Source of the DNA: Planctomycetales bacterium
GTDB lineage: Bacteria; 4484-113; JAFGCY01
DNA length: 32,000 nt
Direction: 5' to 3'
Assembly (NCBI GenBank): GCA_022646745.1
Contig: CP060262.1
Span: 3,630,001 to 3,662,000 of the forward strand
Shown here: piece by piece, positions 3,627-25,143 of the stretch
Position numbering within the stretch: the stretch's first letter is position 1
How the letters are laid out: every line of letters begins with the position of its first letter
Notes under the pieces: model-generated
Databases searched by the model: none
Told to the model about the DNA's origin: nothing
Seen by the model: only the letters and a program-made list of their open reading frames with translations
Program-made: the position numbers and the translations under genes

Positions 3627-3665
3627 GTCTCTCCTCGCTATTGTGCTGTTGTCAGTTTGTCAGTG

Positions 3666-4445
3666 TCAGCCTGCGCTGGCAGCGGCTCCGGCGACCTTGT
3701 TGCTGATCTTGCCGAGGCCCTCGATCTCGAGATCGACGACGTCGCCACTCTTGATCCAGCCACCGGTGTTCTCCGGGCCAAGCTCCAGGATGCAGCCGGT
3801 GCCGACGGTACCGCTGCCGATCAGTTCGCCGGGATAGAGCGTCACGCCATTGGAGGCGCGCTCGATCATCTCGCCGAAGCTGAAGTGGATGCTGTTCCAG
3901 TTGCCACGGCTGATCTCCCTGCCGTTGACATGGCAGGTCATCTGCAGGTCGAAGCCCTTGCCGCTGCGCTTTGCCTCCAGCTCATCCGGAGTGACAAGCA
4001 CCGGGCCCAGCGTGGTGGCGAAGTCCTTGCCCTTGGCCGGACCGAGGTTCATCACCATCTCCGCCTTCTGAGCGTCGCGCAGGGACCAGTCGTTGATCAC
4101 GGTGTAGCCGAGGATGTACTGCTCGGCATCCTCCGCCTTGACGTTGCGGCACTCCCTGCCGATCACCGCCCCGACCTCCAGTTCGAAGTCCAGCCACTCA
4201 CCGGCGGAGGGGAACTGCAGGTCCTCACCGTCCAGCAGCAGGCTGTGCGAGTTGCTGAAATAGAACACGGCGATCTTGTACCAGTCAGGGATCATGTCAA
4301 CGCCGCGCCTGGCGCGGGCGGCCTTCACATGCTGCTCGAAGGCGTAGAAGTCGCGGAAGCTGCGGATCGGCAGGCGGCCGTCCGGGGTCTCGACGGCGAC
4401 CACGCCGCCTTCATTCGGGTTGATGCGTACGAAGTTGTATCTCAT
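3666..4445 (-). CDS. Fumarylacetoacetate hydrolase (FAH) family protein, short 259-aa form
   Basis: Blocks DFELEVGAVIG, GYTVINDWSLRD, GPAKGKDFATTLGP and GELIGSGTVGTG are typical of the FAH-domain fold. ATG 4445 lies 1 nt after the hppD stop (4447..4449), implying translational coupling. The longer 316-aa ORF start looks like an antisense-type extension. Confidence 0.8.
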   Translation of the reverse strand: MRYNFVRINPNEGGVVAVETPDGRLPIRSFRDFYAFEQHVKAARARRGVDMIPDWYKIAVFYFSNSHSLLLDGEDLQFPSAGEWLDFELEVGAVIGRECRNVKAEDAEQYILGYTVINDWSLRDAQKAEMVMNLGPAKGKDFATTLGPVLVTPDELEAKRSGKGFDLQMTCHVNGREISRGNWNSIHFSFGEMIERASNGVTLYPGELIGSGTVGTGCILELGPENTGGWIKSGDVVDLEIEGLGKISNKVAGAAASAG

Positions 4446-4446
4446 A

Positions 4447-5562
4447 TCAGAGGTTGCCCCTTCTCTCCTGCTCCTGCTCGATGGCCTCGAACAGCGCCTT
4501 GAAGTTACCCTTGCCAAAACCACGGCTGCCGCGGCGCTGGATGATCTCGAAGAACAGCGTCGGGCGGTCCTCCACCGGCTTCGTGAACAGCTGCAGCAGG
4601 TAGCCCTCGTCGTCACGGTCGATCAGCACGCGCAGTTCCTTCAGCACGTCCATTGGCTCCTTGATCTCCCCGATGCGCTCCGCGATGCCGTCGTAGTAGC
4701 TGCGGGGCACGTTGAGGAACTCCACGCCATTCTCGTAGAGCTTGGTCAGGGTCTCGATGATGTCGTCCGTCAGCAGGGCCACGTGCTGGGCACCGGCCCC
4801 CTCATAGAAGTCGATGTACTCCTCGATCTGGCTCTTCTTCTTGCCCTCGGCGGGCTCATTGATCGGGAACTTGATTGCGTATGTATTGTTGCTCATCACG
4901 ATGGACATCAGCGCGCTGTACTCAGTGGAAATGTCCTCGTCGTCAAAGGTGATGTAGCGGTGGAAGCCGAACACGTTCTCGTAGAACGCGGCCCACTCAT
5001 TCATGCGGCCCAGCTCAACGTTGCCAACGATGTGGTCGATGCGCAGGATGCCCGCGTCTCGCCCGGGGGCCTCGTTGACGGTGAATCCCGGCAGGAATGG
5101 CCCCTTGTAGTCGACGTGCTGGATCAGGCTGTGCACGGTGTCACCGTAGGTGCCGACAACAGCCCAGCGCACTGTGCCGTGCTCATCGGTCACGTCATGC
5201 GGCTCGACGATGCCCTTCGCTCCCTGGCTCGTGGCATAGGCGTAGGCCTTGTCGCAGTCGTCAACCTCGAAGGCGATGTCCTGCACACCGTCGCCATGCT
5301 TTGATAGGTGCTCGTTGATGCGGTGCCGTGAATTCAGAGGCGTCGTCAGCAGGAACACCGCATTGCCCTGGCGCAGGGCGTAGGATGTTGCCTCGCGGTT
5401 CTTCGTCTCGAGCCCGCTGTAGGCGAAGCGGCTGAAGCCGAAAGCGTTGCGGTAGTAGTAGTCAGCCTGCTTGGCGTTGCCCACCCAGAACTCGACGTGG
5501 TGCACCTGTTTCAGGCCGCAGGGGTTCTCGGTGCGTACCCTGTTCTCGCTAGTCACACTCAT
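4447..5562 (-). CDS. hppD: 4-hydroxyphenylpyruvate dioxygenase
   Basis: [98 protein letters not shown] are hallmark HPPD blocks. GGGAGG lies 6 nt upstream of ATG 5562. Confidence 0.92.
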
Positions 5563-5603
5563 GTAATGCCTCCCGTGACCGATGGGTCCTTGCATTTGAC
5601 ATG

Positions 5604-13314: not shown

Positions 13315-14979
13315 ATGAAGAGGTTTGCACTCTCCCTGCTGGCCTGCATGGTCCTTGGATGCTCCGTTGCCTGGGCGGATTCCGCCTATGACGACGTGTC
13401 CACCGACCACTGGGCCTACAACGCCCTGGATTACCTGACGCACCGTGGTGTGCTGGAAGGTTATCCTGACGGGTTCTTCAAGGGTGACCGTACGCTGACG
13501 CGTTACGAGTTCGCCCAGGCGATCGCCCGTCTGCTCGACACTGTTGGTGAGGGATCGCCCGAAGACATCAACATCATGGCCGAAACCCTTCGCGCGGAAT
13601 TCTCTGACCAGCTCGCCAGCCTTGGCGGGCGGGTTGATGCCCTGGGCAACCAGGTCAACGACATGAACTCGACCATCTCGGATCTTGAAGGTAGTGTGGC
13701 GGACAACACCAACCGGATCGGCGACCTCGAAGGCAAGGTCAAGGACCTCAAGCCCGGACCGGAGTGGAAGGGAGAGCTGCGCTACCGCTGGCAGTTCGAG
13801 GACTGGGCGGACCGCAACCGCTTCCGCCAGCGCATCCGCTTCAAGCTGGGCTACAGCAAGCAGATCAACGACTGCGTCAAGCTGGCCTGGCAGTTCCAGA
13901 CCCAGACCGGCAACGATGCCACCTCCGGCAACCATACACTTGGCAACCAGGGACGGACAGCGGACATCTTCCTGCACGAAGCCTATGTCAAGTACAGCCC
14001 CGCCTGGTTCGGCTATTACCAGGACTGCGAGAAGCCCAAGCCTAACTGCGGTGGCTGCGGTGGCTGCAACGAATGTCAGAGCTGCGCCAAGTGCGAAGAG
14101 CTGAAGTGCGAGTGCAAGAGCAAGCTGGACATCTATGCCGGTATCTTCCCGAGCATCCTCACGGATGAGCATGAGATGGTGCTGGATGGTGACGTGAACC
14201 TGCAGGGTCTCGGCTTCGTTTACCACTTCAACCAGGACTTCCAGCTGACCAGTGTCGCCAGTGTCTTCGTCGAGAAGAACGGCAGTGACTACTTCGATGA
14301 CGACACCTACTTCTTCGCCACGGAACTGCGCCATGACGATTTCCTGATTGACGGCCTCGACGCCTGGGTGGGCAGCTACGGCTGGAAGGAAGAGAACCAG
14401 CTGCTTGCGGACTACTTCACGGGCAACGGCCTTGTTCTGGCTGACAACAGCGTGTTCGATTTCAACGGTGACGGCACCGTCAACGGCCTCGACCGCTTCA
14501 ACAGCAACTTCAGCGTCTACAAGGCCGGCCTGCAGTACACCTGGGACTGCGCCTGGGACGACAAGCCGTTCAAGATCTTCGGTGAGTACATGCTGGCCTG
14601 CGACAGCGACGCGGAGGACAACATCTCCATCGTCAACCAGGGCCTCGCCTCCCCGATCATCTATGAGACCAGCGACGATACCGGCTGGGTCGCAGGTGCG
14701 CAGTGGGGAGACAAGCCCAAGGACTGCGGCGACTGGTTCACCTTTGCCCGCTACAAGGAGATCGGGGCCAACACCATCGTCTCCGGCCTGGGTGATTCCG
14801 ATACTGGTGGCGCAAACCGCAACAGCTTCGAGTGGCACTGGGCATACATCTGGGCCCCGAACTGCACGCTCGGTATCACCTACATCCTGCAGAAGATGCA
14901 CAACGCGTATGGATTCCAGATTCCCAGCGGCCAGGACGACCGCCAGATCGTGCAGGTGGACTGGGTGTTCAAGTTCTAG
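13315..14979 (+). CDS. SLH-domain outer-membrane porin (OmpM/Slp-like: SLH + coiled-coil stalk + beta-barrel) with a Cys-rich insertion
   Basis: Signal peptide ...CSVAWA|D. SLH motif DHWAYNALDYL..GVLEGYPDGFFKGDRTLTRYEFAQAIARLL. Heptad-like stretch LGGRVDALGNQVNDMNSTISDLEGSVADNTNRIGDLEGKVKDL. Then amphipathic beta-strand patterning ending ...VQVDWVFKF (C-terminal Phe). GTGAGG RBS. Confidence 0.85.
   Translation: MKRFALSLLACMVLGCSVAWADSAYDDVSTDHWAYNALDYLTHRGVLEGYPDGFFKGDRTLTRYEFAQAIARLLDTVGEGSPEDINIMAETLRAEFSDQLASLGGRVDALGNQVNDMNSTISDLEGSVADNTNRIGDLEGKVKDLKPGPEWKGELRYRWQFEDWADRNRFRQRIRFKLGYSKQINDCVKLAWQFQTQTGNDATSGNHTLGNQGRTADIFLHEAYVKYSPAWFGYYQDCEKPKPNCGGCGGCNECQSCAKCEELKCECKSKLDIYAGIFPSILTDEHEMVLDGDVNLQGLGFVYHFNQDFQLTSVASVFVEKNGSDYFDDDTYFFATELRHDDFLIDGLDAWVGSYGWKEENQLLADYFTGNGLVLADNSVFDFNGDGTVNGLDRFNSNFSVYKAGLQYTWDCAWDDKPFKIFGEYMLACDSDAEDNISIVNQGLASPIIYETSDDTGWVAGAQWGDKPKDCGDWFTFARYKEIGANTIVSGLGDSDTGGANRNSFEWHWAYIWAPNCTLGITYILQKMHNAYGFQIPSGQDDRQIVQVDWVFKF
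14047..14064 (+). repeat. Perfect tandem 9-bp duplication TGCGGTGGC x2 (encodes CGGCGG) inside the porin Cys run
   Basis: Read directly: 14047..14055 equals 14056..14064, followed by TGC. Confidence 0.9.
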
Positions 14980-15024
14980 GCATAGGGAGCAAATCCTTCA
15001 CGCAACAGAACGTGACATTAGATG

Positions 15025-15053
15025 AGGGCGGGTCCTAGTGACTCGCCCTTTTT
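15025..15053 (+). terminator. Rho-independent terminator after the SLH-porin gene
   Basis: AGGGCGGGTC / GACTCGCCCT forms a 10-bp stem (one G-U) with loop CTAGT, followed by TTTTT. Confidence 0.7.
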
Positions 15054-15286: not shown

Positions 15287-15338
15287 ATAAATGATCCACT
15301 CATTGGAGACCTGGGTGGCTTTTCGGCTAAGGAGGCCG

Positions 15339-17330
15339 ATGATGACAAGCAATGTTTCAACCGGGAGAGGAATTCTCCATCAGGCATTGGGAATCACAGC
15401 TGCCAGCCTCCTCGCGCTTGGCAGCTGCGCCAGCTCGCTTTCCGGCGGCGGGGGAAACCCCGATGACGGAGGCGGCGTAAACAAGGCTCCGGTGATCATC
15501 GGAAATACGATCGCTGCCAACAACCTCAGTCCTGAGACATCGCAGGTTGTGCAGTTCTCCGTATCCGCCAGTGATCCCGAAGGCAGTGCACTGACCTTCA
15601 GCTGGGATGACGGAAATGCCGCCGCCGGTACCTTCGACGGCACGGGCTCTTCCGTATTCTGGAGCACTGAGGAAGCCGGAACCTACACGATCTCCGTGAT
15701 CGCGTACGACCCGGAGCTGCTATCAGCCACTGCCAGCACTTCAACCACGGTGGCACAGGCTCCGGATCCGCCGGGACCAAACGATCCGCCGGTGTTCGAC
15801 CAGAACGGCATCCAGAAGGACGTCAGCTCCCCGGTCGCCGGACAGAAGATCATCTTCTCGGTAACCGCGTCTGACTCCGATGGCGACACGCTCAGCTTCG
15901 TCTGGCAGGATGACACCGGCCAGGACAACTTCTCCGACATCACCGTCGAGAACGGCACTTCCAAGGCCACTTGGTCTTATGACGAGGCCGGCAGCCATAC
16001 GATCACCGCAATTGCCAATGACGGCAAGGCCACCGGTACGTCAATGGTGAGCGCAGTCACAAGCCAGACCGCCACGGTGACCCTTGCGGCGATGCCGACG
16101 TCCTTCGACTTCAGCGGTGCGGAGCGTTGCGCCAACTGCCACTCCGATGTGTACGACCAGTGGGAGAACACCGGTCATGCCCACATCGAGGACACCATGC
16201 AGCAGATCGGCCGCGGCCGCCTTGAGAGCTGCCGTGAATGCCACACCGTCGGTTATGGCGAGGGTGGTTACATCAGTTACGACCTCACCCCGCAGTTTGC
16301 CAACGTCCAGTGCGAAAGCTGCCACGGCTCCGGCACCGGCCACCCGGCCAACGGTCCGCTGCCCGCATCCTTCGACCCGACCGACTCCTGTGGCCGTTGC
16401 CATACTGAGGAGCACCACCCGACATTCGAAGAGTGGCAGACCTCCGGACATGCTAACTTTGCCCTTGATGAGCACAACGCAACCGGTTCAAGCTGCGTCA
16501 AGTGCCACAACGGTGAATGGTTTGTCCGGATCCAGATCAACGGCGAGGATCCCCCTGCAGAAGACCTGGCTGAAGGCACCCATGTGACCTGCGCCACCTG
16601 CCATGATCCGCACGGCAACGGATTCGAGAACCAGCTGCGAGTCGATCCTACAGCAACGATGATCATCCCCTTTGATGACACCGAAGTTAATGCCGGTAAG
16701 GCCAACACCTGCCTTGCCTGCCACAATGGACGCCGTAACCGCGGTGACATGGAGAACACGATTGCCAAGGGTGGTCGTGGCTTCCATGCCAACAGCCAGG
16801 GCCCGATGATCTTCGGCGTTGGCGGTTTCGAATTCGATGGCTACGAGTATGACAAGTCGCATCCGCACAACTCCTGGAATGAGGAGAAGTGCATCACCTG
16901 TCACATGTACAGCAAGGAATTCGAGGACTTCGAGAACCCGGCCATCGTCGGCCACAGCTTCGCCCCGAAGATTGAATCCTGCAACGTCTGCCACACATTC
17001 GCCACCAGCGAAGAAATGGAAGCCTACAAGGAGGAATTCATCAACGGTACGCTGGCCATGCTGCTCGAGTTCGAGACTATCTGGCCTGCTGAGTGGAAGA
17101 CTGAGGATGCCGGTGTGTTCGACCTGAACAACAAGCCCTCCAGCTCTGATCCACCTAGCACCGACGGCCCGCCGCTGAATGACCCGATCGGCGACCAGTA
17201 TCGCCAGGCTTGGTGGAACTACGAGTACGTCCGAGAGGACGCGAGCAAGGGTGTCCACAACCCGGCTTACTCCCGCGGCCTGCTGCAGTCCGCCATCAAC
17301 AAGGTCAACGAACTCAACGCTCTGCCGTAA
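15339..17330 (+). CDS. Lipoprotein nonaheme c-type cytochrome with two N-terminal PKD/cadherin-like Ig repeats
   Basis: AAGGAGG lies 5 nt upstream of ATG 15339. Lipobox LLALGS|C is followed by a Gly-rich linker. Two about 95-aa repeats (VVQFSVSASDPEGSALTFSWDD / KIIFSVTASDSDGDTLSFVWQDD). Nine CXXCH motifs (CANCH, CRECH, CESCH, CGRCH, CVKCH, CATCH, CLACH, CITCH, CNVCH). Confidence 0.9.
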   Translation: MMTSNVSTGRGILHQALGITAASLLALGSCASSLSGGGGNPDDGGGVNKAPVIIGNTIAANNLSPETSQVVQFSVSASDPEGSALTFSWDDGNAAAGTFDGTGSSVFWSTEEAGTYTISVIAYDPELLSATASTSTTVAQAPDPPGPNDPPVFDQNGIQKDVSSPVAGQKIIFSVTASDSDGDTLSFVWQDDTGQDNFSDITVENGTSKATWSYDEAGSHTITAIANDGKATGTSMVSAVTSQTATVTLAAMPTSFDFSGAERCANCHSDVYDQWENTGHAHIEDTMQQIGRGRLESCRECHTVGYGEGGYISYDLTPQFANVQCESCHGSGTGHPANGPLPASFDPTDSCGRCHTEEHHPTFEEWQTSGHANFALDEHNATGSSCVKCHNGEWFVRIQINGEDPPAEDLAEGTHVTCATCHDPHGNGFENQLRVDPTATMIIPFDDTEVNAGKANTCLACHNGRRNRGDMENTIAKGGRGFHANSQGPMIFGVGGFEFDGYEYDKSHPHNSWNEEKCITCHMYSKEFEDFENPAIVGHSFAPKIESCNVCHTFATSEEMEAYKEEFINGTLAMLLEFETIWPAEWKTEDAGVFDLNNKPSSSDPPSTDGPPLNDPIGDQYRQAWWNYEYVREDASKGVHNPAYSRGLLQSAINKVNELNALP

Positions 17331-17348
17331 CAGCAGTACACCAAGAGA

Positions 17349-17377
17349 GGGCGCCCGCAATGGGCGCCCTTTTTTTT
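17349..17377 (+). terminator. Rho-independent terminator
   Basis: GGGCGCCC-GCAAT-GGGCGCCC perfect 8-bp GC stem followed by T8. Confidence 0.85.
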
Positions 17378-17533
17378 GCCTGGATCCCCTTGTATACAGG
17401 CTTGATGAAGTCTGACTAAAGACACAATTCCGATGCCCGATATCATAGATATATAGTAGGTTTGTGATAAACTTGGAGCCGGAGAACACTGTTTTCCACA
17501 GGGTAGAGGAAGAGAGAATATTGGAGGATCAGC

Positions 17534-18742
17534 ATGGCTGCGAGAAGGTCATTGATGACCATCGTGCTGATAGCCGTCGGAGTGCTGGGCTGGACTTACG
17601 TAGGACAGGCGCAGTTCTTTGATTCCCTTGAGGGAATGGAAGCTCCGGAGGATGTCAGCGGTGTTGACTGTGCAATGTGTCATGGAAGCGCGGCTCAGGA
17701 AGTCACCTTCCCGCATGCTCCGGCCTTCGAGGGCAAGTGCGACACGTGCCACCAGACAACTGGTGTCGGGGGCCATGGCGGGCTCGTCAGTGAGACCCGC
17801 TCACTGTGCCTCAATTGCCACCAGGACAAGTCAGAGCACTACCCCGCACTCACCTGCTGGACGAGCAATTGCCACAGCGACATGCACGGCAGCAACCTCG
17901 ATCCCTTCCTCAACCCCAGCCGCCAGGAGGACTACCCCGGCTTTGCCGCCTCCACGGAAGGTGCGCAGTACGTCGGTACTGAGACCTGCCTGAGCTGCCA
18001 CCAGGGCCATCGCCGGGAATGGCAGAAGTCCATGCACAGCCTGACCGACCACGGTACCCGCCCGATCAGCGAGCGTGGCTGCGAAAGCTGCCACGGACCG
18101 GGCAGCAACCACTGGGGCCGCCGCGCCGGCATCGGTGTGTTCAGCATGGCAAGCTCCAAGGAAATTGACGACACCTGCCTTGAGTGCCACAAGTCCGACA
18201 CCTACGTACCGGACTACAAGGGCACCCGTCACGTGAAGGAAGGCATGTCCTGCATCGAGTGCCATGACCCGCACATGCAGACCAACAAGCACAACCTGCG
18301 CAAGACCCCCAATTCAATGTGCCTGACCTGCCACGAGTCCACCCGCGTGGACTTCGCCAAGTTCAGCCACCACCCGCTTGACAACGAAGACCCGCGCATG
18401 GGCCTGATGTGCATTGATTGCCACAATCCGCACGGCGGCGAGGGGCACGAGATGCTCAAGCAGGTGAAGGACGACCTCTGCTTCGAATGCCACGCTGACA
18501 AGCAGGGCCCGTTCATCTTCGAGCACGCGGGATACGACCCGGCCATGGGCAACGGCTGCTTCACCTGCCACAGTGCACACGGCAGCAGCAACCCTGACCT
18601 GCTGAACTTCTCCGGACGGGGTACCTGCATGGAATGCCATACGGACCGTGCCAACCACTTCCCCGCACAGAACTGCTGGACCTCGGGATGCCATTCCGAC
18701 CACCACGGTTCCAACACTGATTTCTTCTTCTTCGGGAACTAG
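17534..18742 (+). CDS. Periplasmic multiheme c-type cytochrome, 14 predicted heme sites (12 CXXCH + 2 CX4CH)
   Basis: GGAGGA RBS. Signal peptide ...YVGQA|QFF. Motifs CAMCH, CDTCH, CLNCH, CWTSNCH, CLSCH, CESCH, CLECH, CIECH, CLTCH, CIDCH, CFECH, CFTCH, CMECH, CWTSGCH. The CH..HGSN endings recall DmsE/MtrA-type cytochromes. Confidence 0.9.
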   Translation: MAARRSLMTIVLIAVGVLGWTYVGQAQFFDSLEGMEAPEDVSGVDCAMCHGSAAQEVTFPHAPAFEGKCDTCHQTTGVGGHGGLVSETRSLCLNCHQDKSEHYPALTCWTSNCHSDMHGSNLDPFLNPSRQEDYPGFAASTEGAQYVGTETCLSCHQGHRREWQKSMHSLTDHGTRPISERGCESCHGPGSNHWGRRAGIGVFSMASSKEIDDTCLECHKSDTYVPDYKGTRHVKEGMSCIECHDPHMQTNKHNLRKTPNSMCLTCHESTRVDFAKFSHHPLDNEDPRMGLMCIDCHNPHGGEGHEMLKQVKDDLCFECHADKQGPFIFEHAGYDPAMGNGCFTCHSAHGSSNPDLLNFSGRGTCMECHTDRANHFPAQNCWTSGCHSDHHGSNTDFFFFGN

Positions 18743-18755
18743 GAGGTAGCAAGCG

Positions 18756-20462
18756 ATGCGCAACGGACTGTTAACTGCCCTCCTCGTCTTCTCCATGCTT
18801 GTCATGCTCAGCGGCGTGGCCCTCGCGGGCGATGCCTGCACCGGCTGCAACGCTGGCTGCGCTGACTGCTGTGAGTTCTGGGCCGAAGACGGTCTTGGCA
18901 ACTATGTCGAGATCGGCGGCACCAGCACGGAAGTGAATGACAACGAGGACTCCTTCAACCAGTACGGGCTCTACCCGGAGGACTGGTACACCAACGGCCG
19001 CTACAACAGCGTCGACATGGGCTGCGTGCTCAACCGCTTCGAGGCCCGCTGGCAGGATGTCAGCAGCGACAGCGGACGCGGCTGGGGCCGCCTGACGAGC
19101 TGGCCGCTCGTGCTGCAGGGTGACAGCACCCTGATCAGCGGCCGCGCCTGGAACGCCTTCGGCGCGGAGCCGGCACTGGTGCCCTACGACTGGTCACATG
19201 ACCAGTACGGCCTGCGGATCCACCACCGTGAGCTTGACAACATGGCGCTCAACTACGAGCGCATCGAGCTCAACCATGACACGGCCAGCCCGCTGCATGA
19301 CCTCAAGGTGGAGCGCCTCGGCTACCGCTGGAACCTGGACATCATCGGCATCGACACGATGGCCCAGGTCACCCAGCGTGCCACCACGATCGACACCACC
19401 CTGCCCGGCGCCTCCGGCAGCATTGACCATACCCGCGTCAAGCTGGACGCCAGGCTGAGCGATGAGCTGAAGGCCTACGGCCGGATCAACTACAAGCAGT
19501 ACCAGTACGATGACCAGCCGGATCCCGAGTTCTCCAGCGCGGACCTGACACTGGGCATGCGCTACGACCCGAGCTGCGACTGGTCCTTCAACGCGGAGTA
19601 CAGCAGCAGCGAGGCCGCCGATGACAACATCGTCAGCAGCCACGTTCAGAGCTCCAGCGAGTACGGCTTCTCGGCGGCCTGGTACCCCGGCTGTGGCAAC
19701 AGCTACGAAGCCGGCTACAAGCTGCGGCAGGTGGACTACGCCAAGCTGGACATGCAGGACAGCTCAGTGTTCAACCTGCTGCGTGGCTCCTCCGTGGTGA
19801 CACCGGCCCAGGTCGCTCCCGCGGTGACGATCCTCGCGCCTGAGTACGACACTGTCTGGTTCGACATGAAGCAGAACCTCTCGGACCGACTGAAGTTCCG
19901 TACGCACATCGACTACGAGTCGGGCAGTACCCCGGGCACTGAGCTCGTCAGTGTCGGCAGCACCAGCCTGTTCTTCGACAAGCAGCTGTCCCGCACCCAC
20001 GGCCTGTCCTGGACGGTGGACAATCACAACTCCGTTGACTTCAACATGTACGGCCAGGAATCCCGCAATGGTGGCCGTGACAGCCAGACCAACCTGACCT
20101 ATGCCGAGGGAGTCTGGATGCACCGCATCGACAGCTGCAGCCAGTTCGCTCTGTCCCTGCGTGACAGCCGCTCTGAGCTCGATATGCCGGGCATTGATGA
20201 CGAGTACAGCACCGACGACAAGACCTACGCCGCCACCTACGGGCAGCAGCTTGAGGACCATGACTACTCGCTGAACTTCGCCATGAGCGACGGCAGCGGG
20301 GCTGAGAACTACACCCAGACCAGTGCCGGGGCTGAGGTCCGCTTCAAGCGCCTCGGGCCGCTGGGCCTGCGCCTGGACTGGTACCGCAGGCTGTATGACA
20401 ACTACCCGGGCCTTGAATCAGATGCAGTCTCAGTTGCGGTAAATTACAGGATTAGCTTCTGA
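18756..20462 (+). CDS. Outer-membrane beta-barrel protein, candidate cytochrome-sheathing porin (MtrB/PioB-like role), with N-terminal Cys cluster
   Basis: The AGGAGG RBS overlaps the stop of the upstream cytochrome, and ATG lies 13 nt after that stop. Signal peptide ...GVALA|GD. CTGCNAGCADCC follows directly after cleavage. Alternating hydrophobic beta-strand pattern throughout, Tyr/Asp/Ser/Asn-rich loops, and a C-terminal ...VAVNYRISF. Confidence 0.75.
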   Translation: MRNGLLTALLVFSMLVMLSGVALAGDACTGCNAGCADCCEFWAEDGLGNYVEIGGTSTEVNDNEDSFNQYGLYPEDWYTNGRYNSVDMGCVLNRFEARWQDVSSDSGRGWGRLTSWPLVLQGDSTLISGRAWNAFGAEPALVPYDWSHDQYGLRIHHRELDNMALNYERIELNHDTASPLHDLKVERLGYRWNLDIIGIDTMAQVTQRATTIDTTLPGASGSIDHTRVKLDARLSDELKAYGRINYKQYQYDDQPDPEFSSADLTLGMRYDPSCDWSFNAEYSSSEAADDNIVSSHVQSSSEYGFSAAWYPGCGNSYEAGYKLRQVDYAKLDMQDSSVFNLLRGSSVVTPAQVAPAVTILAPEYDTVWFDMKQNLSDRLKFRTHIDYESGSTPGTELVSVGSTSLFFDKQLSRTHGLSWTVDNHNSVDFNMYGQESRNGGRDSQTNLTYAEGVWMHRIDSCSQFALSLRDSRSELDMPGIDDEYSTDDKTYAATYGQQLEDHDYSLNFAMSDGSGAENYTQTSAGAEVRFKRLGPLGLRLDWYRRLYDNYPGLESDAVSVAVNYRISF

Positions 20463-20538: not shown

Positions 20539-20567
20539 GAGAGTTGCAAGCACCAAGGAGGTGTAGC

Positions 20568-21077
20568 ATGTTCAGGAAGTATGGCTGGGTAATCGCTGTG
20601 TTCATCGTGGCGATGTTCGCCTGGGGCGCCTTCAGCGCAGAGCAGGCAAGCGGTGCCGATGCCAACGAGTATGTCGGTGACAACGAGAAGAAGTGCGGCA
20701 TGTGCCACAAGGAGCAGGTCGCAGCATGGAAGAAGTGGCCGATGGCCAAGACCTGGGACACACTGCAGGCCAGCAAGGACAAGAAGGACAGCTGCATCCC
20801 CTGCCATGTGACCGGCTTTGGCAAGCCCGGCGGCTTCGTCAGCATCGAGAAGACCCCCAAGCTCGTCAACGTGCAGTGCGAGGCCTGCCATGGCCCCGCC
20901 AAGGACCACCTTGCCGCCCCGCTCAACGATGTTGAGAAGAAGCGCAACACGATGACCAAGCCGACGGAGGCGAACTGCAAGACCTGCCACAACAAGGACT
21001 CCCCGCACTACAAGGAGTTCAAGTACGCTGATGCCGTCAAGGCACTGGCGGATCACAAGCCCAAGCCGAAGAAGTAA
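20568..21077 (+). CDS. Tetraheme c-type cytochrome (c554-like module)
   Basis: AAGGAGG lies 7 nt upstream of ATG 20568. N-terminal hydrophobic segment WVIAVFIVAMFAWGAFSA. Motifs CGMCH, CIPCH, CEACH, CKTCH. Lys-rich tail. Confidence 0.88.
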   Translation: MFRKYGWVIAVFIVAMFAWGAFSAEQASGADANEYVGDNEKKCGMCHKEQVAAWKKWPMAKTWDTLQASKDKKDSCIPCHVTGFGKPGGFVSIEKTPKLVNVQCEACHGPAKDHLAAPLNDVEKKRNTMTKPTEANCKTCHNKDSPHYKEFKYADAVKALADHKPKPKK

Positions 21078-21112: not shown

Positions 21113-21146
21113 ACGGGCGTCCCTCCATGGGGCGCCCGTTTCATTT
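21113..21146 (+). terminator. Rho-independent terminator after the tetraheme gene
   Basis: ACGGGCGTCCC-TCCAT-GGGGCGCCCGT forms an 11-bp stem (one G-U) followed by TTCATTT. Confidence 0.65.
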
Positions 21147-21177
21147 GTAATCTGCCTCAGCAGAGGCAAGAGTGACC

Positions 21178-22332
21178 ATGTCCAAGCAGAGTTCAACTGA
21201 AAAGCAGTCCCGCTGCCCGGTGTGCCGGGCGAGCAACCAGCCCGCCGCGCGCTTCTGCGAGCAGTGCGGTGCCGTGATGAATGCCGGCCCGGGTGGCCAG
21301 TCCGCTCCGGCTGCCAACCCGCTGCGCATCGTGATGCCGATCGTGATCGTGCTGGCGCTCGTCGGCGGCATGGTGATGCTGCAGCGCCAGCCCAAGCAGG
21401 GTGCTGATGCCATGAACCAGGCACTCGGCGGCAACCCGCACAGCCTGCCCGGCGCGGATGGCAATGCCGGCGGCGATGTCAATTCGATGGTCGAGCAGTT
21501 CAAGGCGCGGCTGGACAAGGACCCGCTGGACACCGCGGCACTGAACGAGCTGTACACTATCTACAGCAGCATCAGTGAAGCTGACAAGGTCACGCCCTAT
21601 ACGCAGGCGGCCGTCACAGCCTGGATGAAGCAGCCGGCGGACAGCCGGGAGGCCAAGCTGATTGCAGATGTGGCCGCACTGTCGATGCAGAACGGTGACC
21701 TGCTGGGGGCGGCTGCCTCGTTTGAGGCCTACAGCCAGGCCGAGCCGGAGAACTACTCCGTGATGGCAACCGTCGGCGACCTGCACCTGCAGCTCAGCCG
21801 TGTGGAGGCGGCAGGCAGCGAAGTGGCCGGCCGCGAGGCGAAGAAGGCCGAGACCTGGTACCAGCGCTTCCTTGACAACGCCAGCCCGGAAAGCCACCCT
21901 GAGCTGTACTGGGACGTGCTCGTCAACCAGGCCAGCGCGATGATGGCCCAGATGCCCGCCGAAGGTGCTGACTTCAGCCAGGTGCTGGCCAACCTCGAGC
22001 GCGCCACGACGGAGAACCCGGATTACTGGCTGGGCTGGCACAGCTACGGCATGGCCCTCAAGGCCGCCGGCAGGAACGATGATGCGATCGCGGCACTGGC
22101 CGCTGCCAAGCAGCACGGCAGCCCGCGTGAGACCTGGGAGTCCGAGCAGCAGCTGGCGATGCTGGAGAACCGCGAGCCTGACCCGGGTGACTTCGACCCG
22201 ACCGACCCGCATGCGGGGATGGACATGAGCGGAGCTGGGGGTGGTGGAAACACACCGCACGGCATGCCCAACCCGCACCGCCAGGGTGACGAAGTACCGG
22301 AGAACCCGCACAACATCGGCACCCAGGGCTAG
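21178..22332 (+). CDS. Zinc-ribbon / single-TM / TPR-like periplasmic domain protein with His/Met/Pro-rich tail
   Basis: CPVC-x12-CEQC zinc ribbon. TM segment LRIVMPIVIVLALVGGMVMLQ. Helical-repeat region resembling TPR. Tail PHAGMDMSGAGGGGNTPHGMPNPH..NPHN. High third-position GC on the plus frame. GTG 21172 is an alternative start. Confidence 0.75.
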   Translation: MSKQSSTEKQSRCPVCRASNQPAARFCEQCGAVMNAGPGGQSAPAANPLRIVMPIVIVLALVGGMVMLQRQPKQGADAMNQALGGNPHSLPGADGNAGGDVNSMVEQFKARLDKDPLDTAALNELYTIYSSISEADKVTPYTQAAVTAWMKQPADSREAKLIADVAALSMQNGDLLGAAASFEAYSQAEPENYSVMATVGDLHLQLSRVEAAGSEVAGREAKKAETWYQRFLDNASPESHPELYWDVLVNQASAMMAQMPAEGADFSQVLANLERATTENPDYWLGWHSYGMALKAAGRNDDAIAALAAAKQHGSPRETWESEQQLAMLENREPDPGDFDPTDPHAGMDMSGAGGGGNTPHGMPNPHRQGDEVPENPHNIGTQG

Positions 22333-22451
22333 CAGTCGCAGACAGCAGCATGCGTTTAACTCCCCCTTCCCGCTCAGCGATTAACTGATTGAGGAAGAGC
22401 AATCCCGCATGGGTGCCCGGAACCCCCGTGCGAGGGAAACTGGAGAAAGAC

Positions 22452-23777
22452 ATGCGGCTTATGCTGACAACGCTTGCTGCGATCCTGCTGCTTTGCAATG
22501 CGGCGCGAGCGGATGCGCCAGAGCTGGACTTTGTGGACCCTACCGATCAGGCATACAAATTTCTAGGCTCACTATTGCAGGCAGGTTACTTGCCGGATTA
22601 CCCGTCCAATTACCTTGAAGATCACCCTGTACTTACTCGCTATGAATTCGCCCAGGCGACGATCTGTTGTTTGGACAACTTCATACATCAAGATGATTCC
22701 AATGCAGAAATTCTTGCGGAGTCACTACGTGCAAACTTCAATACCGAGTTGATCAACTGGACGGGATTGAGCTCCCTGTACGGCCCGGTAGCTCCTCTTA
22801 GTGAAACGGAGATGCCCGACAAACGGCCAGAGATTGGCGCGCGCCGTGCTGATCAGCTTTTCCCCTCTGATCACTGGGCTAACCAGGCTATCGGAATTCT
22901 CGCCGACAACTGTCGAGCCAACACACGAACTAAGTTAAAGGACAAAATGCTGCTGCAACCCTGGACTTACTCCGAGACTGCAGCTGCAGTAATAGATTTG
23001 GCAAACAATCTGTCAGCAGACTCCGACCCGGCCCTGATTCCGCTGGTCGACTCCCTTGTGTGCTTATTACAGCCGGACATCAGATATCTGTTATCGGTCA
23101 GAGCAGACAAAAATCTGTACTACACAGACTGGGCAATAAGGCACTCAGTGAGTCTTGAGGAATGCCGCAAGCATGATCCATATTTTGACCTGCCGCCAGA
23201 GCCTGTCTGGATGTTGAGCCAGGAAATTCCGGTGGACAGTTTCCTATATCCCTTGCTTGATTACGCACAGAATGCGGGATTCCTGCCAAACTTCGTTCCG
23301 GGTTACTGGCAGAATCGCAACGGATCGCAAACATTTGAGGAATTGTTTCTGGCAAATGACATCCTGAAACTGACAATACACGAGGACGGTTCAGCCATTG
23401 ATAGGCTGGTTTCAAACGTTCTAGTTGAAGCGCAAAGGAATCTGGAAAGCTCTGAAAATTTCGATGACCGAAGCAACGTATGTTTTATAGGAGACATGCG
23501 TAAGTATCGCAATAGTGGAATAACTGATCTGTGGGACTCCTGGCCCGGCGAAGCCCTGTTAAAACTGCAAGAGCGTGGCTACCTTACGAATCTTCCGGTG
23601 AGCAGCTATCACTCGGTCACGGGGAAAACGCGGCTGGAAATGTCAATTGTAGTCGGTAAACTGCTCAGTGAGCTCAACGCTGATTCACCTTTGGACATCA
23701 AAATTTTGGGAGAAACCCTCAGGCGCGAGTACAGCGACCTTCTGCCGGACTGGGCTCCGCTTTCGGAGCAAGATTAG
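22452..23777 (+). CDS. Secreted protein built from about four degenerate SLH-like units, with no barrel
   Basis: Signal peptide MRLMLTTLAAILLLCNAARA. Units contain ...LTRYEFAQATI..., SDHWANQAIGIL..., ...LEMSIVVGKLL.... Trailing segments AESLRANFNTEL and GETLRREYSDLL parallel the porin AETLRAEFSDQL. Low GC. Confidence 0.7.
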   Translation: MRLMLTTLAAILLLCNAARADAPELDFVDPTDQAYKFLGSLLQAGYLPDYPSNYLEDHPVLTRYEFAQATICCLDNFIHQDDSNAEILAESLRANFNTELINWTGLSSLYGPVAPLSETEMPDKRPEIGARRADQLFPSDHWANQAIGILADNCRANTRTKLKDKMLLQPWTYSETAAAVIDLANNLSADSDPALIPLVDSLVCLLQPDIRYLLSVRADKNLYYTDWAIRHSVSLEECRKHDPYFDLPPEPVWMLSQEIPVDSFLYPLLDYAQNAGFLPNFVPGYWQNRNGSQTFEELFLANDILKLTIHEDGSAIDRLVSNVLVEAQRNLESSENFDDRSNVCFIGDMRKYRNSGITDLWDSWPGEALLKLQERGYLTNLPVSSYHSVTGKTRLEMSIVVGKLLSELNADSPLDIKILGETLRREYSDLLPDWAPLSEQD

Positions 23778-23802
23778 ATGAAAGTTATTCAGAGAAACGA
23801 GA

Positions 23803-24480
23803 ATGATTGACATGAAACAATTTATCTCAAAAGTTTCTTTTCTTCTCTTTGCTGCGATCCTGCTGCTTGGCAATGCCGCCATCGCCGGCAGTGCCGATGA
23901 CCAAGTAGGCAGGGATCATTGGGCTTACGCCCTATTCGACTACTTGGTCAACGACCCGAACGTCGAATGGAAAGTTGTCCAACCAGGTGATTTCTTCAGC
24001 AGGGAAGACCGATTGCTGACAAGGTATGAATTTGCTTCTGCAGCTCTAGTCTTTGGATATTCTATTTTTGAAAATGGCTCTGACTCACAAAAGATGCTTC
24101 TGCACATCTGCATGAATGAATTCAAAGACCAAATTGTCAGTATGGGGCACACAGACCATTTCGTCAGCCTGGAGATATCCAACCTGGGCATGAACAACGA
24201 GATCCAGGGATCAATGCGTACCGGCGCATCCGCCGATGTCCCCCCCGAGCACTGGGCATACGACGCGGTAGAGTTCTTCATTGACAGTGGAACCCTGGAA
24301 GGGTACCCGGCTGGCTTCTACGACCGCAGCAGGATCCTGACCCCCTATGAATTCGCCCAGGCAATCGCTCGACTGTTGGACATTTTGAGTGATCAGGAAA
24401 ATCCATATCCATATGAAGTACAGATTGCCGAGTGCCTGCGAGTCGAATTCAGTGACCAGCTGGATTCAATCAGCAGCTAG
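23803..24480 (+). CDS. Secreted two-SLH-domain protein, with no barrel
   Basis: Signal peptide ...FAAILLLGNAAIAG. DHWAYALFDYL...LTRYEFASAAL and EHWAYDAVEFF..GTLEGYPAGFYDRSRILTPYEFAQAIARLLD plus AECLRVEFSDQL are close to the N-terminus of the 13315 porin. Confidence 0.8.
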   Translation: MIDMKQFISKVSFLLFAAILLLGNAAIAGSADDQVGRDHWAYALFDYLVNDPNVEWKVVQPGDFFSREDRLLTRYEFASAALVFGYSIFENGSDSQKMLLHICMNEFKDQIVSMGHTDHFVSLEISNLGMNNEIQGSMRTGASADVPPEHWAYDAVEFFIDSGTLEGYPAGFYDRSRILTPYEFAQAIARLLDILSDQENPYPYEVQIAECLRVEFSDQLDSISS

Positions 24481-24579
24481 TTGGATTGTGCTTTACGGAA
24501 TTACTCTTCTGACGCGAAAGCCAGAGCTGATGACCTTGCAGGTACAGTCTGCAACTAGCCGGTACTCCCCTCTGCCTGA

Positions 24580-24801
24580 TCAGACCTCAAACAGCTGCCT
24601 TGGCAATCCACTAAGACGGATGATTCCTGAAAGAGTTCCCGTCTTGAGCTCCTTGTGGTCTGGTACTGGAACAGTCCTGCTTGAATGCTCTTGTTGCAGT
24701 TGCATGACAATATGGCTGCCTTTCCGGCGGACTTCCCGGAATCCATGATCAGCAAGTATGCGGCAGACTTCAGCTCCACTGAACCTGCCCAGACGGCCCA
24801 T
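24580..24801 (-). CDS. hicA: HicA-family type II toxin (mRNA interferase)
   Basis: 73 aa. FSGAEVCRILADHGF..VRRKGSHIVM...VPVPDHKELKTGTLSGIIR is the HicA pattern. Its ATG overlaps the hicB stop (ATGA at 24799..24803, minus strand). Confidence 0.85.
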   Translation of the reverse strand: MGRLGRFSGAEVCRILADHGFREVRRKGSHIVMQLQQEHSSRTVPVPDHKELKTGTLSGIIRLSGLPRQLFEV

Positions 24802-25028
24802 CAGTGCGGGCTTACTTCAAAGGTACTGATCTCTGTGTCAAACGGAATACGCTGCTTCAGCTCTTCTTCGCTGGCGCATTCAAGGTACAGTTCAACCGCT
24901 TCTTGCAGGTTGGCCTTGGCCACAGCAACAGTATTGCCCTGGCTGACTACATCCAGCTCCGGACACAGGGCCACGTACATGTCTTCCTCTCGGCTTATCA
25001 CTGCGGTCAGTTTGATGGGGATGGACAT
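24801..25028 (-). CDS. hicB: HicB-like antitoxin (UPF0150 fold only, no appended DNA-binding domain)
   Basis: 75 aa. EEDMYVALCPELDVVSQGNTVAVAKANLQEAVELYLE is the HicB N-terminal domain pattern. Confidence 0.8.
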   Translation of the reverse strand: MSIPIKLTAVISREEDMYVALCPELDVVSQGNTVAVAKANLQEAVELYLECASEEELKQRIPFDTEISTFEVSPH

Positions 25029-25143
25029 ACTTCAAGTTTATACCTCAATTCTCGGCCCAGGCTTCAGCAGATGCAAATCCCCTCCCCTGCCCCGAACAAA
25101 ACAGGTGTTTCACAGTCCTGTATAATTCACAGTGAGGGATGAT

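Follow-up and report, generated by a model that had tools for sequence, protein, structure and literature searches.

We describe a nine-heme lipoprotein cytochrome encoded in a 32,000-nucleotide (nt) stretch of DNA from Planctomycetales bacterium (GenBank assembly GCA_022646745.1, contig CP060262.1, positions 3,630,001 to 3,662,000 of the forward strand). This whole stretch is referred to below as the window, and positions are counted from its first letter. The heme domain of the protein is most closely related, among solved structures, to OcwA, a nonaheme outer cell-wall cytochrome that serves Thermincola potens JR, a Gram-positive bacterium, as a surface terminal reductase (PMC6703420). It follows a lipobox, a Gly-rich tether and two immunoglobulin (Ig)-like repeats, and its gene stands directly upstream of genes for an MtrA-family multiheme cytochrome and a putative outer-membrane beta-barrel. 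We lean modestly towards the view that the protein is the surface-displayed, outward-facing terminal oxidoreductase of a porin-cytochrome conduit, in which an OcwA-type domain replaces MtrC.

The heme domain and its relatives

The protein contains exactly nine CXXCH motifs, at amino acids (aa) 264, 298, 325, 351, 386, 418, 458, 518 and 548, and neither CXXCK nor CX3-4CH motifs are present in its sequence. In an alignment of 80 homologues all nine motifs are invariant, and nine covalent-heme motifs together with conserved axial histidines cannot have arisen by chance. The motifs are divided between a c554-like module (hemes 1–4), which carries the invariant residues H280 and H371, and an NrfA-like module (hemes 5–9), which carries the invariant residues H425, H483, Q487, H539 and H640 and includes a C-terminal helix bundle. 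Within the DASKGVHNPAYSRGLL helix of this region G638, H640 and N641 are invariant in the same 80 homologues, and the helix aligns with the matching helix of OcwA and with NrfA structures. An earlier note on this DNA had counted nine CXXCH motifs and likened this C-terminal helix to those of the NrfA and HAO families, and both observations hold. No curated Pfam or NCBIfam family spans the whole heme domain.

OcwA (PDB 6I5B) emerged as the top solved relative from the single sequence alone. With a profile of the 80 homologues it was again the best match (E 6e-38), ahead of OmhA (6QVM, E 7.5e-34), cytochrome c554 (1bvb, E 5.7e-18), NrfA chains in the PDB (E 1.8e-16), octaheme nitrite reductase (E 1e-13) and MccA (E 1.8e-10). 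A Foldseek search with the full-length model matched nothing but tandem-Ig, cadherin and titin structures and was uninformative on the heme domain, and we therefore modelled aa 250–663 separately, obtaining a predicted local distance difference test score (pLDDT) of 94.5 and a predicted template modelling score (pTM) of 0.90. Compared with the PDB by Foldseek, this model gave OcwA as the top match (6i5b_B/6i5b_A, E 3.8e-9, query-normalised template modelling score 0.62), with octaheme nitrite reductases, NrfA, MccA and HAO ranked below it. The heme domain thus falls in the NrfA/c554/octaheme superfamily by both profile and fold, with OcwA first. No structure of MtrC, OmcA, UndA, OmcS or OmcZ was among the 50 Foldseek matches listed, the last nine of which (E 2–5) are unrelated antibody, hemagglutinin and regulator chains.

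OcwA is built from a c554-like tetraheme scaffold and an NrfA-like pentaheme unit with a three-helix bundle (PMC6703420), and the window protein follows the same plan. Its nine CXXCH motifs follow one another as in OcwA (heme 1, His, hemes 2–4, HH, GH, hemes 5–9, GVHN); the N-terminal module is c554-like, the C-terminal one is NrfA-like, and the helix bundle carries the G-V-H-N motif. The likeness extends to a His-His motif over heme 2 (H281/H282 in OcwA, where it is non-bonding), to six conserved non-motif histidines here against six bis-His hemes in OcwA, and to the proposed role as a terminal extracellular reductase. The two proteins differ in that their identity is only about 18%, and in that the beta-sheet insertion found between hemes 1 and 2 of OcwA (aa 75–156, shared with MccA) is absent; hemes 1 and 2 are separated by 30 residues here, modelled as helical, compared with about 110 in OcwA. 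The second His-His motif of OcwA (H380/H381, at heme 5) is not evident in the window protein, which in turn adds a lipobox and two Ig-like domains. The setting is also different, with a diderm-type context here (an MtrA-like cytochrome, a barrel and SLH-porins) in place of a Gram-positive cell wall.

In OcwA, hemes 2 and 5 are five-coordinate, each lying under a His-His motif, heme 9 is His/Met-ligated, and the other six are bis-His (PMC6703420). Our assignments of axial ligands rest on alignment to OcwA together with conservation. Exactly six non-motif histidines are invariant among the 80 homologues (H280, H371, H425, H483, H539 and H640), and these would act as the distal ligands of six bis-His hemes. 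Five-coordination, seen in OcwA at hemes 2 and 5, is probable here at the same two hemes, and the ligation suggested for hemes 2, 5 and 9 comes from homology. At heme 2, the profile alignment places H359-H360-P-T-F-E-E-W opposite S-H-H-L-Q-Y-P-E-W of OcwA, which contains HH281/282; a His is kept at H360 in 76 of the 80 homologues and at H359 in 54. The heme 5 region reads R480-G481-F482-H483-A484, compared with a family consensus of F-G-P-H-H-S-x-Q in which Q487 is invariant. Here the local register of the profile alignment is uncertain, but it pairs the invariant H483 with the OcwA His at chain position ~354 (numbered H383) and puts R480/G481 at the positions of OcwA H380/H381. Opposite an OcwA methionine the alignment places M490, which 56 of the 80 homologues share. 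As to the kind of active-site heme, a point raised in the earlier note, no CXXCK motif was found, but the His-His pocket above heme 2 is retained as in OcwA.

We considered and rejected membership of several better known families. The MtrC/OmcA/OmcS group is rejected on the absence of a fold match among the structures listed and of a TIGR03507 match. PF22113 (Mtrc-MtrF_II-IV_dom) does match the nine-heme protein at 44.4 bits (cutoff 30), but two other cytochromes encoded in the window, the MtrA-like one (31.7 bits) and the small tetraheme one (30.9 bits), match it as well, so the match looks like a generic, non-specific CXXCH-rich similarity. As with MtrC of Shewanella (MtrCAB, PDB 6R2Q; MtrC, 4LM8), a lipoprotein multiheme cytochrome is encoded directly upstream of MtrA-family and barrel genes, and the predicted job is that of an extracellular electron outlet. 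The fold, however, is unrelated to the staggered-cross decaheme fold with two beta-barrel domains of the MtrC/OmcA/UndA family. Where MtrC has ten hemes the protein has nine, and it lacks both the split-barrel domains that bind flavin and the CX8C disulfide, Cys30 of the lipobox being its sole Cys beyond the heme motifs. The remark in the earlier note that this domain combination was not recognised from characterised MtrC/OmcA or Geobacter Omc proteins agrees with the fold comparison, in which MtrC, OmcA, UndA and OmcS gave no match, although the named relative, OcwA, had been missed.

Identity as NrfA is rejected on the absence of CXXCK, on four extra hemes and on a PF02335 (Cytochrom_C552) match that stays under its cutoff (22.1 bits compared with 24.1) and covers aa 502–657, corresponding to profile positions 232–374 of 438. 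The C-terminal five-heme module and helix bundle are homologous to those of NrfA and the octaheme nitrite reductases (TvNiR/ONR), but the window protein adds a c554-like tetraheme module, Ig-like domains and a predicted lipid anchor, and no NrfH, NrfB or NrfCD partner was found in the window. None of the NCBIfam models for NrfA, ONR, HAO and MccA reaches its cutoff. MccA, the octaheme sulfite reductase, is defined by copper-site cysteines and a CX15/17CH eighth-heme motif (PMC9250108); the nine-heme protein has no spare Cys for a copper site and no CX15/17CH motif. Hemes 1–4 match Pfam Cytochrome_C554 and the sequence of cytochrome c554 of Nitrosomonas europaea (PDB 1FT5/1BVB), but c554 is a soluble four-heme carrier of ammonia oxidisers, whereas the module is fused here into a nine-heme lipoprotein.

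Public records label the window protein as hypothetical (locus records UNM08093-UNM08097, H7A35_14775-14785). A member of the same 90%-identity cluster, MCB1186236.1, has been auto-annotated as ammonia-forming cytochrome c nitrite reductase subunit c552, while others there are called hypothetical; the nitrite reductase label is unsupported because there is no CXXCK and the Pfam score lies under the cutoff. Mislabels of this kind could inflate nrfA counts in metagenome surveys.

Predicted lipid anchor, tether and Ig-like repeats

The open reading frame (ORF), including an alternative upstream limit, extends over 15291/15339..17330 on the forward strand. A strong Shine-Dalgarno sequence, AAGGAGG, ends 3 nt before the ATG at 15339 and 6 nt before that at 15342, and we therefore place the start at one of these two codons. 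The public entry P0001 (662 aa, 100% identical) starts at 15342. An alternative public call begins at a TTG at 15387 and gives 647 aa (UNM08095.1 and MCB1220493.1, in the same 90% cluster); because this would drop the charged n-region of the signal peptide, the starts at 15339/15342 are preferred.

The N-terminus reads MMTSNVSTGRGILHQALGITAASLLALGS followed by C30, the signal stretch before the lipobox being MMTSNVSTGRGILHQALGITAASLLA-LGS-C30. The n-region contains Arg10, and the top 19-residue hydropathy window covers aa 16–34. Following these n- and h-regions, the sequence fits the pattern [LVI][ASTVI][GAS]C taken as the criterion for a signal peptidase II substrate, although Gly at lipobox position -2 is less usual. 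Cys30 is the predicted lipidated N-terminus of the mature protein. The Gly-rich segment behind it is predicted to be disordered, with pLDDT below 50 across aa 29–44 of the AlphaFold model.

Two Ig-like repeats lie between the tether and the heme domain. They are identical at 38 of 103 positions (37%), and their local alignment score of 139 compares with 34 ± 6.4 for shuffled sequences (z = 16). Repeat 1 matches Pfam PKD at 32.6 bits (cutoff 23.5) and repeat 2 matches Pfam Big_9 at 25.5 bits (cutoff 23.6). AlphaFold models both confidently as beta-sandwiches, with pLDDT above 90 in the strands of repeat 1, and repeat 2 has sequence matches in the PDB to PKD and protocadherin domains. The lipobox with its Gly-rich tether and the two homologous PKD/cadherin-like repeats had been described in the earlier note, and both descriptions hold. 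Across the family about one to four Ig-like domains precede the heme domain, the first heme motif lying at residue ~130, ~260 or 330–450, and this variation in number fits a role as a stalk or spacer.

An MtrA-like cytochrome and a putative barrel are encoded downstream

The lipoprotein cytochrome, MtrA-like and barrel genes are in the order of mtrC-mtrA-mtrB. The MtrA-like protein scores 200.5 bits with TIGR03508 (cutoff 192.2) and matches the MtrA chain 6r2q_A at E 2e-33. It contains 12 CXXCH and two CX4CH motifs, giving 14 candidate heme sites, of which four are in an N-terminal extension that, judged from its sequence, would lengthen the wire on the periplasmic side. The two CX4CH motifs are CWTSNCH (aa 108) and CWTSGCH (aa 381), each followed by HGSN, and the N-terminal ~115 aa resemble a four-heme duplication of the protein's own C-terminal end.

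The next gene encodes a 568-aa heme-free protein that we predict to be a beta-barrel. It ends in ...VAVNYRISF, a beta-signal of the outer-membrane protein (OMP) type, and has no internal transmembrane helix; it contains 14 alternating 9-mers, compared with 6.8 ± 2.6 in shuffled sequences, and has weak matches to Pfam OMP_b-brl and BBP2_2. Unlike the barrel of MtrCAB, it has no detectable homology to MtrB: Pfam MtrB_PioB gave no match even at E up to 1, either in this protein or in eight relatives. A sequence search of the PDB gave no match, and comparison with Verrucomicrobial porin-like proteins gave an hhalign probability of 3.7%, with no named porin linked. A word-indexed homologue search found seven relatives, and an exhaustive profile search of 1.84 billion proteins found 19 representatives. 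Near the N-terminus an invariant C28-x-x-C31 and C38 lie inside the Cys-rich stretch CTGCNAGCADCC, and we take this CxxC to recall the N-terminal CXXC motif of MtrB.

A small secreted tetraheme cytochrome of 177 aa follows, and together the MtrA-like, barrel and tetraheme genes form a set of three tightly spaced genes. The tetraheme protein shares 33% identity with the hemes 1–4 module of the nine-heme protein (E 1e-17), of which it is a free-standing version, and it is a candidate periplasmic shuttle.

Between the nine-heme gene and the MtrA-like gene there is an intrinsic terminator (17343-17378) with a folding energy of -27.4 kcal/mol (z = -4.65); none of 200 shuffled sequences was as stable. 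A consensus terminator scan missed this hairpin, whose arms are self-complementary (GGGCGCCC), but folding confirmed it. No terminator of this type was found in the longer intergenic regions of three relatives (L001, L085 and L086).

Conservation of gene order and the wider family

The five-gene arrangement recurs in the KDL44 metagenome-assembled genome (81% identity), in L001 (65%) and in L085/L086, and in part in L087, and synteny with the MtrA-like and barrel genes persists over a range of 50% to 81% identity. Database relatives of the heme domain number at least 1,545 proteins, and in representative genomes we found at least 463 matching stretches spread over many phyla, the best identity among the matches listed being 38%. 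These phyla include Eisenbacteria, Verrucomicrobiota, Planctomycetota/Phycisphaerae, Calditrichota and Ignavibacteria, as well as Gemmatimonadota, Acidobacteriota, Zixibacteria and Armatimonadota. In most complete members of the family there are nine hemes, and the signal peptide is followed by a lipobox-like Cys. Their annotation is usually hypothetical or, wrongly, NrfA, and their genes often adjoin others for multiheme or porin-like proteins.

A census of 84 loci encoding heme-domain homologues showed that in about 16 an MtrA-like cytochrome is encoded directly downstream, followed by a heme-free protein of 570–780 aa ending in YRF, INF or YKW; most of these loci are from Verrucomicrobiota. 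At other loci the homologue lies beside different multiheme and porin-like sets, and at some it is alone. In Gemmatimonadota (L049, L055 and L073) the neighbours encode an 18-heme protein, a heme-free secreted protein of about 500 aa and a 16-heme protein, and at four loci from Calditrichia and others (L022, L042, L044 and L081) they encode a secreted protein of about 420 aa, an 11–12-heme protein, a 7-heme protein and a tetraheme cytochrome. Both sets may be further uncharacterised conduit types. Downstream of the homologue at L002 and L003 is an 11-heme protein (L002 12264-13622, L003 4636-5994) with an NrfH/NapC-type N-terminus (NrfH E 1.6e-15), the rest of which is c3/c7-like.

For freshwater Verrucomicrobia, He et al. 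2017 (PMC5615132) described clusters, by genome prediction only, that combine a porin with an 8-heme cytochrome of the periplasm and, in some cases, a multiheme cytochrome outside the cell. The approximately 16 MtrA-adjacent loci of our census match these putative porin-multiheme clusters: the Verrucomicrobiota homologues are encoded directly upstream of a 7–8-heme MtrA-like protein and a porin-like protein of ~710–780 aa. The locus in the window is unlike the clusters so described in that its barrel is unrelated in sequence to those porins and its MtrA-like protein has 14 heme sites. Four Verrucomicrobial homologues (P0092, P0097, P0103 and P0109) differ further in having an ordinary signal peptide, no lipobox and another N-terminal domain. 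In the passages searched, He et al. 2017 (PMC5615132) assign the extracellular cytochrome to no structural family.

Proposed function and alternatives

If the nine-heme protein is the outward-facing end of a conduit, it would be lipid-anchored at Cys30, and the tether of about 16 residues and two Ig-like domains would form a stalk reaching past the outer-membrane surface. Electrons would leave the quinol pool through an inner-membrane dehydrogenase encoded outside the window, cross the periplasm, plausibly by way of the co-encoded c554-like tetraheme cytochrome, and reach the MtrA-family wire of 14 hemes, around which the co-encoded beta-barrel would form a sheath. The wire would hand them to the nine-heme domain on the cell surface, which would reduce acceptors that are insoluble or macromolecular, for example Fe(III)/Mn(IV) oxides or humic substances; alternatively, a small substrate could bind at an open heme. 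OcwA and OmhA (an undecaheme cytochrome of Carboxydothermus ferrireducens) are experimentally characterised cell-surface terminal reductases (PMC6703420, PMC9250108). The kinship with them, the mtrCAB-like neighbours and the variable number of Ig-like domains all support the proposal of the earlier note that this is a candidate surface electron-transfer protein with Ig-like spacers, its exposure at the surface being inferred.

Several observations weigh against an outward-facing conduit. The terminator between the nine-heme and MtrA-like genes makes their co-transcription doubtful, the putative barrel has no detectable kinship to MtrB/PioB or to Verrucomicrobial porins, and no inner-membrane quinol dehydrogenase is encoded in the window. 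Lipoproteins can also face the periplasm. The relative found at L002/L003, 58% identical and with the same architecture, has no adjacent MtrA or barrel gene, and its arrangement resembles a periplasmic nrfHA-type pair. This suggests that in that organism another route supplies electrons to the same outer module. A further relative, in L004, stands alone. The terminator, the unproven barrel, the NrfH-like partner in one relative and the probable open-coordination hemes together keep a periplasmic or enzymatic role alive.

The best of the alternatives, which we consider rather unlikely, is that the lipoprotein faces the periplasm as an NrfA/ONR/OTR-like enzyme acting on a small nitrogen or sulfur oxyanion, or as an electron-collecting hub, and that its adjacency to the MtrA-like gene reflects shared regulation and no complex. 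The fold lies within the NrfA/c554/octaheme enzyme superfamily, every characterised member of which has at least one five-coordinate heme (PMC9250108), and the His-His pocket known from OcwA is kept over heme 2; yet CXXCK and CX15CH motifs are both missing, and the protein has no Cys left over for a copper site like that of MccA. The Pfam NrfA match is below cutoff and confined to the C-terminal third, and none of the NCBIfam models for NrfA, ONR, HAO or MccA reaches its cutoff. Moreover, the nearest characterised relatives are surface reductases with no more than trace activity towards nitrite (kcat ~1 per min; PMC6703420). At the level of gene organisation, the nine-heme gene has its own Shine-Dalgarno sequence and strong terminator, and the L002/L003 relative has an NrfH/NapC-type membrane cytochrome downstream, but synteny with the MtrA-like and barrel genes is kept from 50% to 81% identity, and a separate soluble tetraheme cytochrome already covers the periplasmic role. 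An Asp at position +2 after the lipobox Cys, present in some family members, also favours the periplasmic placement.

The caution of the earlier note that an enzymatic role should be left open remains valid, given the conserved His-His pocket and the one relative with an NrfH-like partner. Such a role need not place the protein in the periplasm, since DmsEFAB of Shewanella feeds a surface enzyme through an MtrAB-type module (PMC9732548), and surface location and enzymatic activity are thus not mutually exclusive. A reading that joins the two would have the family as a large unnamed diderm branch of OcwA/OmhA, whose member here, a nonaheme cytochrome with two open hemes, would stand on an Ig stalk with a lipid anchor and connect to an MtrA-type conduit by way of a non-MtrB barrel. 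It would be a genuine extracellular enzyme, acting at hemes 2 and 5 on soluble or colloidal substrates much as DmsEFAB supplies a DMSO reductase at the surface, rather than a passive outlet, and the diderm family would be the reservoir from which the Gram-positive surface reductases OcwA and OmhA arose. We regard this combined reading, taken as a whole, as unlikely.

The outward-facing conduit that we favour has a counterpart with the same architecture and location in which flow is inward: the nine-heme protein would collect electrons at the surface, whether from Fe(II), from reduced humics, from a cathode or from a partner cell, and pass them to the MtrA-like wire. Conduits of the MtrA family work either way, the sequence gives no indication of direction, no obvious anaerobic-respiration regulators are encoded in the window, and the neighbours include aromatic amino-acid catabolism genes. 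Inward flow has been proposed for MtoAB and PioAB (summarised in PMC6344600), but these Fe(II)-oxidising systems have no extracellular multiheme subunit (PMC6344600), and the closest characterised homologues of the nine-heme protein, OcwA and OmhA, are reductases (PMC6703420, PMC9250108). Inward flow seems to us distinctly unlikely.

It is very unlikely that the protein is instead an envelope or S-layer cytochrome whose Ig-like domains adhere to cells, minerals or polymers while its hemes serve as a sink, capacitor or detoxifier independently of the conduit: the full-length model does match tandem Ig modules of cadherins, adhesins and S-layer proteins, and several SLH-domain proteins are encoded nearby, but such Ig-like matches are generic, PKD and Big domains are common passive spacers, Pfam finds no SLH, sortase or other wall-binding module in the nine-heme protein, and the conserved MtrA-family synteny speaks for a wired function. 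The S-layer association of OmhA (PMC9250108) and the suggested detoxification of nitrite and hydroxylamine by OcwA (PMC6703420) are the points from characterised relatives that favour it.

Other features of the window

The features discussed here are collected in Table 1. The gene directly upstream of the nine-heme gene encodes an SLH-domain porin with a Cys-rich insert, 10 Cys in 30 residues (aa 238–267, CEKPKPNCGGCGGCNECQSCAKCEELKCECK); an SLH protein is also encoded directly upstream in the closest genomes, as judged from consecutive accession numbers. Two more proteins with weak SLH-like N- or C-terminal matches are encoded at 22389-24480 on the forward strand (NCBIfam por_somb region, E 8e-4 and 3e-7; no Pfam match).

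The gene after the tetraheme cytochrome encodes a zinc-ribbon/TPR protein, whose homologue in L001 is 37% identical. A gene of this kind stands just after the tetraheme gene in every related cluster (L001 16120-17262, L085 10638-11648, L086 7367-8509 and L087 4270-5448), and the protein may help to assemble or regulate the conduit.

Around the two genes with weak SLH-like matches the guanine-plus-cytosine content dips from about 0.60 to 0.49–0.51 (23001-25000), and the next part, 24480-25130, is poor in ORFs. A block on the reverse strand (2472-5595) encodes homogentisate-dioxygenase-like, fumarylacetoacetate-hydrolase-family and 4-hydroxyphenylpyruvate-dioxygenase-like glyoxalase-fold proteins; it is probably concerned with aromatic amino-acid catabolism and looks unrelated to the cytochrome cluster.

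Table 1. Features of the nine-heme cytochrome locus, with positions in the window
Feature	Position	Strand	Details	Basis
SLH-domain porin, directly upstream of nine-heme gene	13315-14979	+		Partial porin match, Pfam Porin_5 (aa 165-229); NCBIfam por_somb (N-terminal region)
Terminator-like hairpin after SLH porin gene	15024-15050			Scan
Shine-Dalgarno sequence	15329..15335	+	AAGGAGG	Direct reading of sequence
Nine-heme lipoprotein cytochrome, coding sequence	15339..17330	+	663 aa + stop	ORF list, translation
Signal peptide and lipobox	15339..15428	+	aa 1-29; lipobox L-G-S-C, aa 27-30	Sequence
Gly-rich flexible tether	15429..15476	+	aa 31-46, ASSLSGGGGNPDDGGG	AlphaFold pLDDT
Ig-like repeat 1, PKD-type beta-sandwich	15477..15773	+	aa 47-145, then Pro-rich linker	Pfam, model
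Ig-like repeat 2, Big_9/cadherin-like	15774..16094	+	aa 146-252, with DSDGD motif	Pfam, model
c554-like module, hemes 1-4	16107..16454	+	CXXCH at aa 264, 298, 325, 351	Pfam Cytochrome_C554, E 5.9e-11
H359-H360 pocket motif	16413-16418	+		Alignment to OcwA HH281/282
NrfA-like module, hemes 5-9	16455..17327	+	CXXCH at aa 386, 418, 458, 518, 548	Pfam, profile, Foldseek
C-terminal helix bundle	within 16455..17327	+	aa 557-661; three long helices	Model
DASKGVHNPAYSRGLL helix	17238-17285	+	aa 634-649; C-terminal helix of the earlier note	
Intrinsic terminator, directly after nine-heme gene	17343..17378	+	GC-rich hairpin + U8	
Promoter-like site	17419-17446			Consensus scan
MtrA/DmsE-family periplasmic/trans-outer-membrane multiheme cytochrome	17534..18742	+	402 aa, signal peptide	
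Putative outer-membrane beta-barrel	18756..20462	+	568 aa, signal peptide, heme-free	
Small secreted tetraheme c554-like cytochrome	20544..21077	+	177 aa	Pfam Cytochrome_C554, E 5.1e-19
Terminator-like hairpin ending MtrA-like/barrel/tetraheme unit	21113..21139	+	-30.5 kcal/mol, z = -4.07	Scan
Zinc-ribbon, hydrophobic segment and TPR protein	21172..22332	+		Pfam TPR, Zn_Ribbon

Implications for extracellular electron transfer in diderms

Most of what is understood about extracellular electron transfer in diderm bacteria comes from two systems, the MtrCAB complex of Shewanella and the Omc/porin complexes of Geobacter. Several parts of the present system were already known, namely the OcwA fold, MtrA-type wires, lipoprotein outer cytochromes and genome-predicted Verrucomicrobial porin-cytochrome clusters. 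In the searchable literature we did not find the combination seen here, in which a diderm encodes, in mtrCAB gene order, an OcwA-like nonaheme domain on a lipid-anchored Ig stalk, an MtrA with 14 heme sites and a barrel of an orphan family, nor did we find there a report linking OcwA-like cytochromes to diderm porin-cytochrome clusters. A 2026 peat preprint on conserved multiheme machinery mentions neither OcwA, nonaheme cytochromes nor PKD. OcwA and OmhA have been described as Gram-positive solutions and were poorly represented in the database analysed in a 2022 evolutionary study (PMC9250108).

This locus adds an example, from an uncultured lineage, of an OcwA-type nine-heme domain that can be mounted on a lipoprotein stalk and placed in mtrCAB order. 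If the proposed role at the cell surface is correct, the family would serve as a marker by which sequences from many environmental phyla could be searched for extracellular respiration or electron uptake, and it would indicate a modular build of conduits in which unrelated outer subunits and unrelated barrels are combined. The nine-heme protein would then also be a tractable candidate for asking whether open-coordination hemes at the cell surface catalyse reactions.

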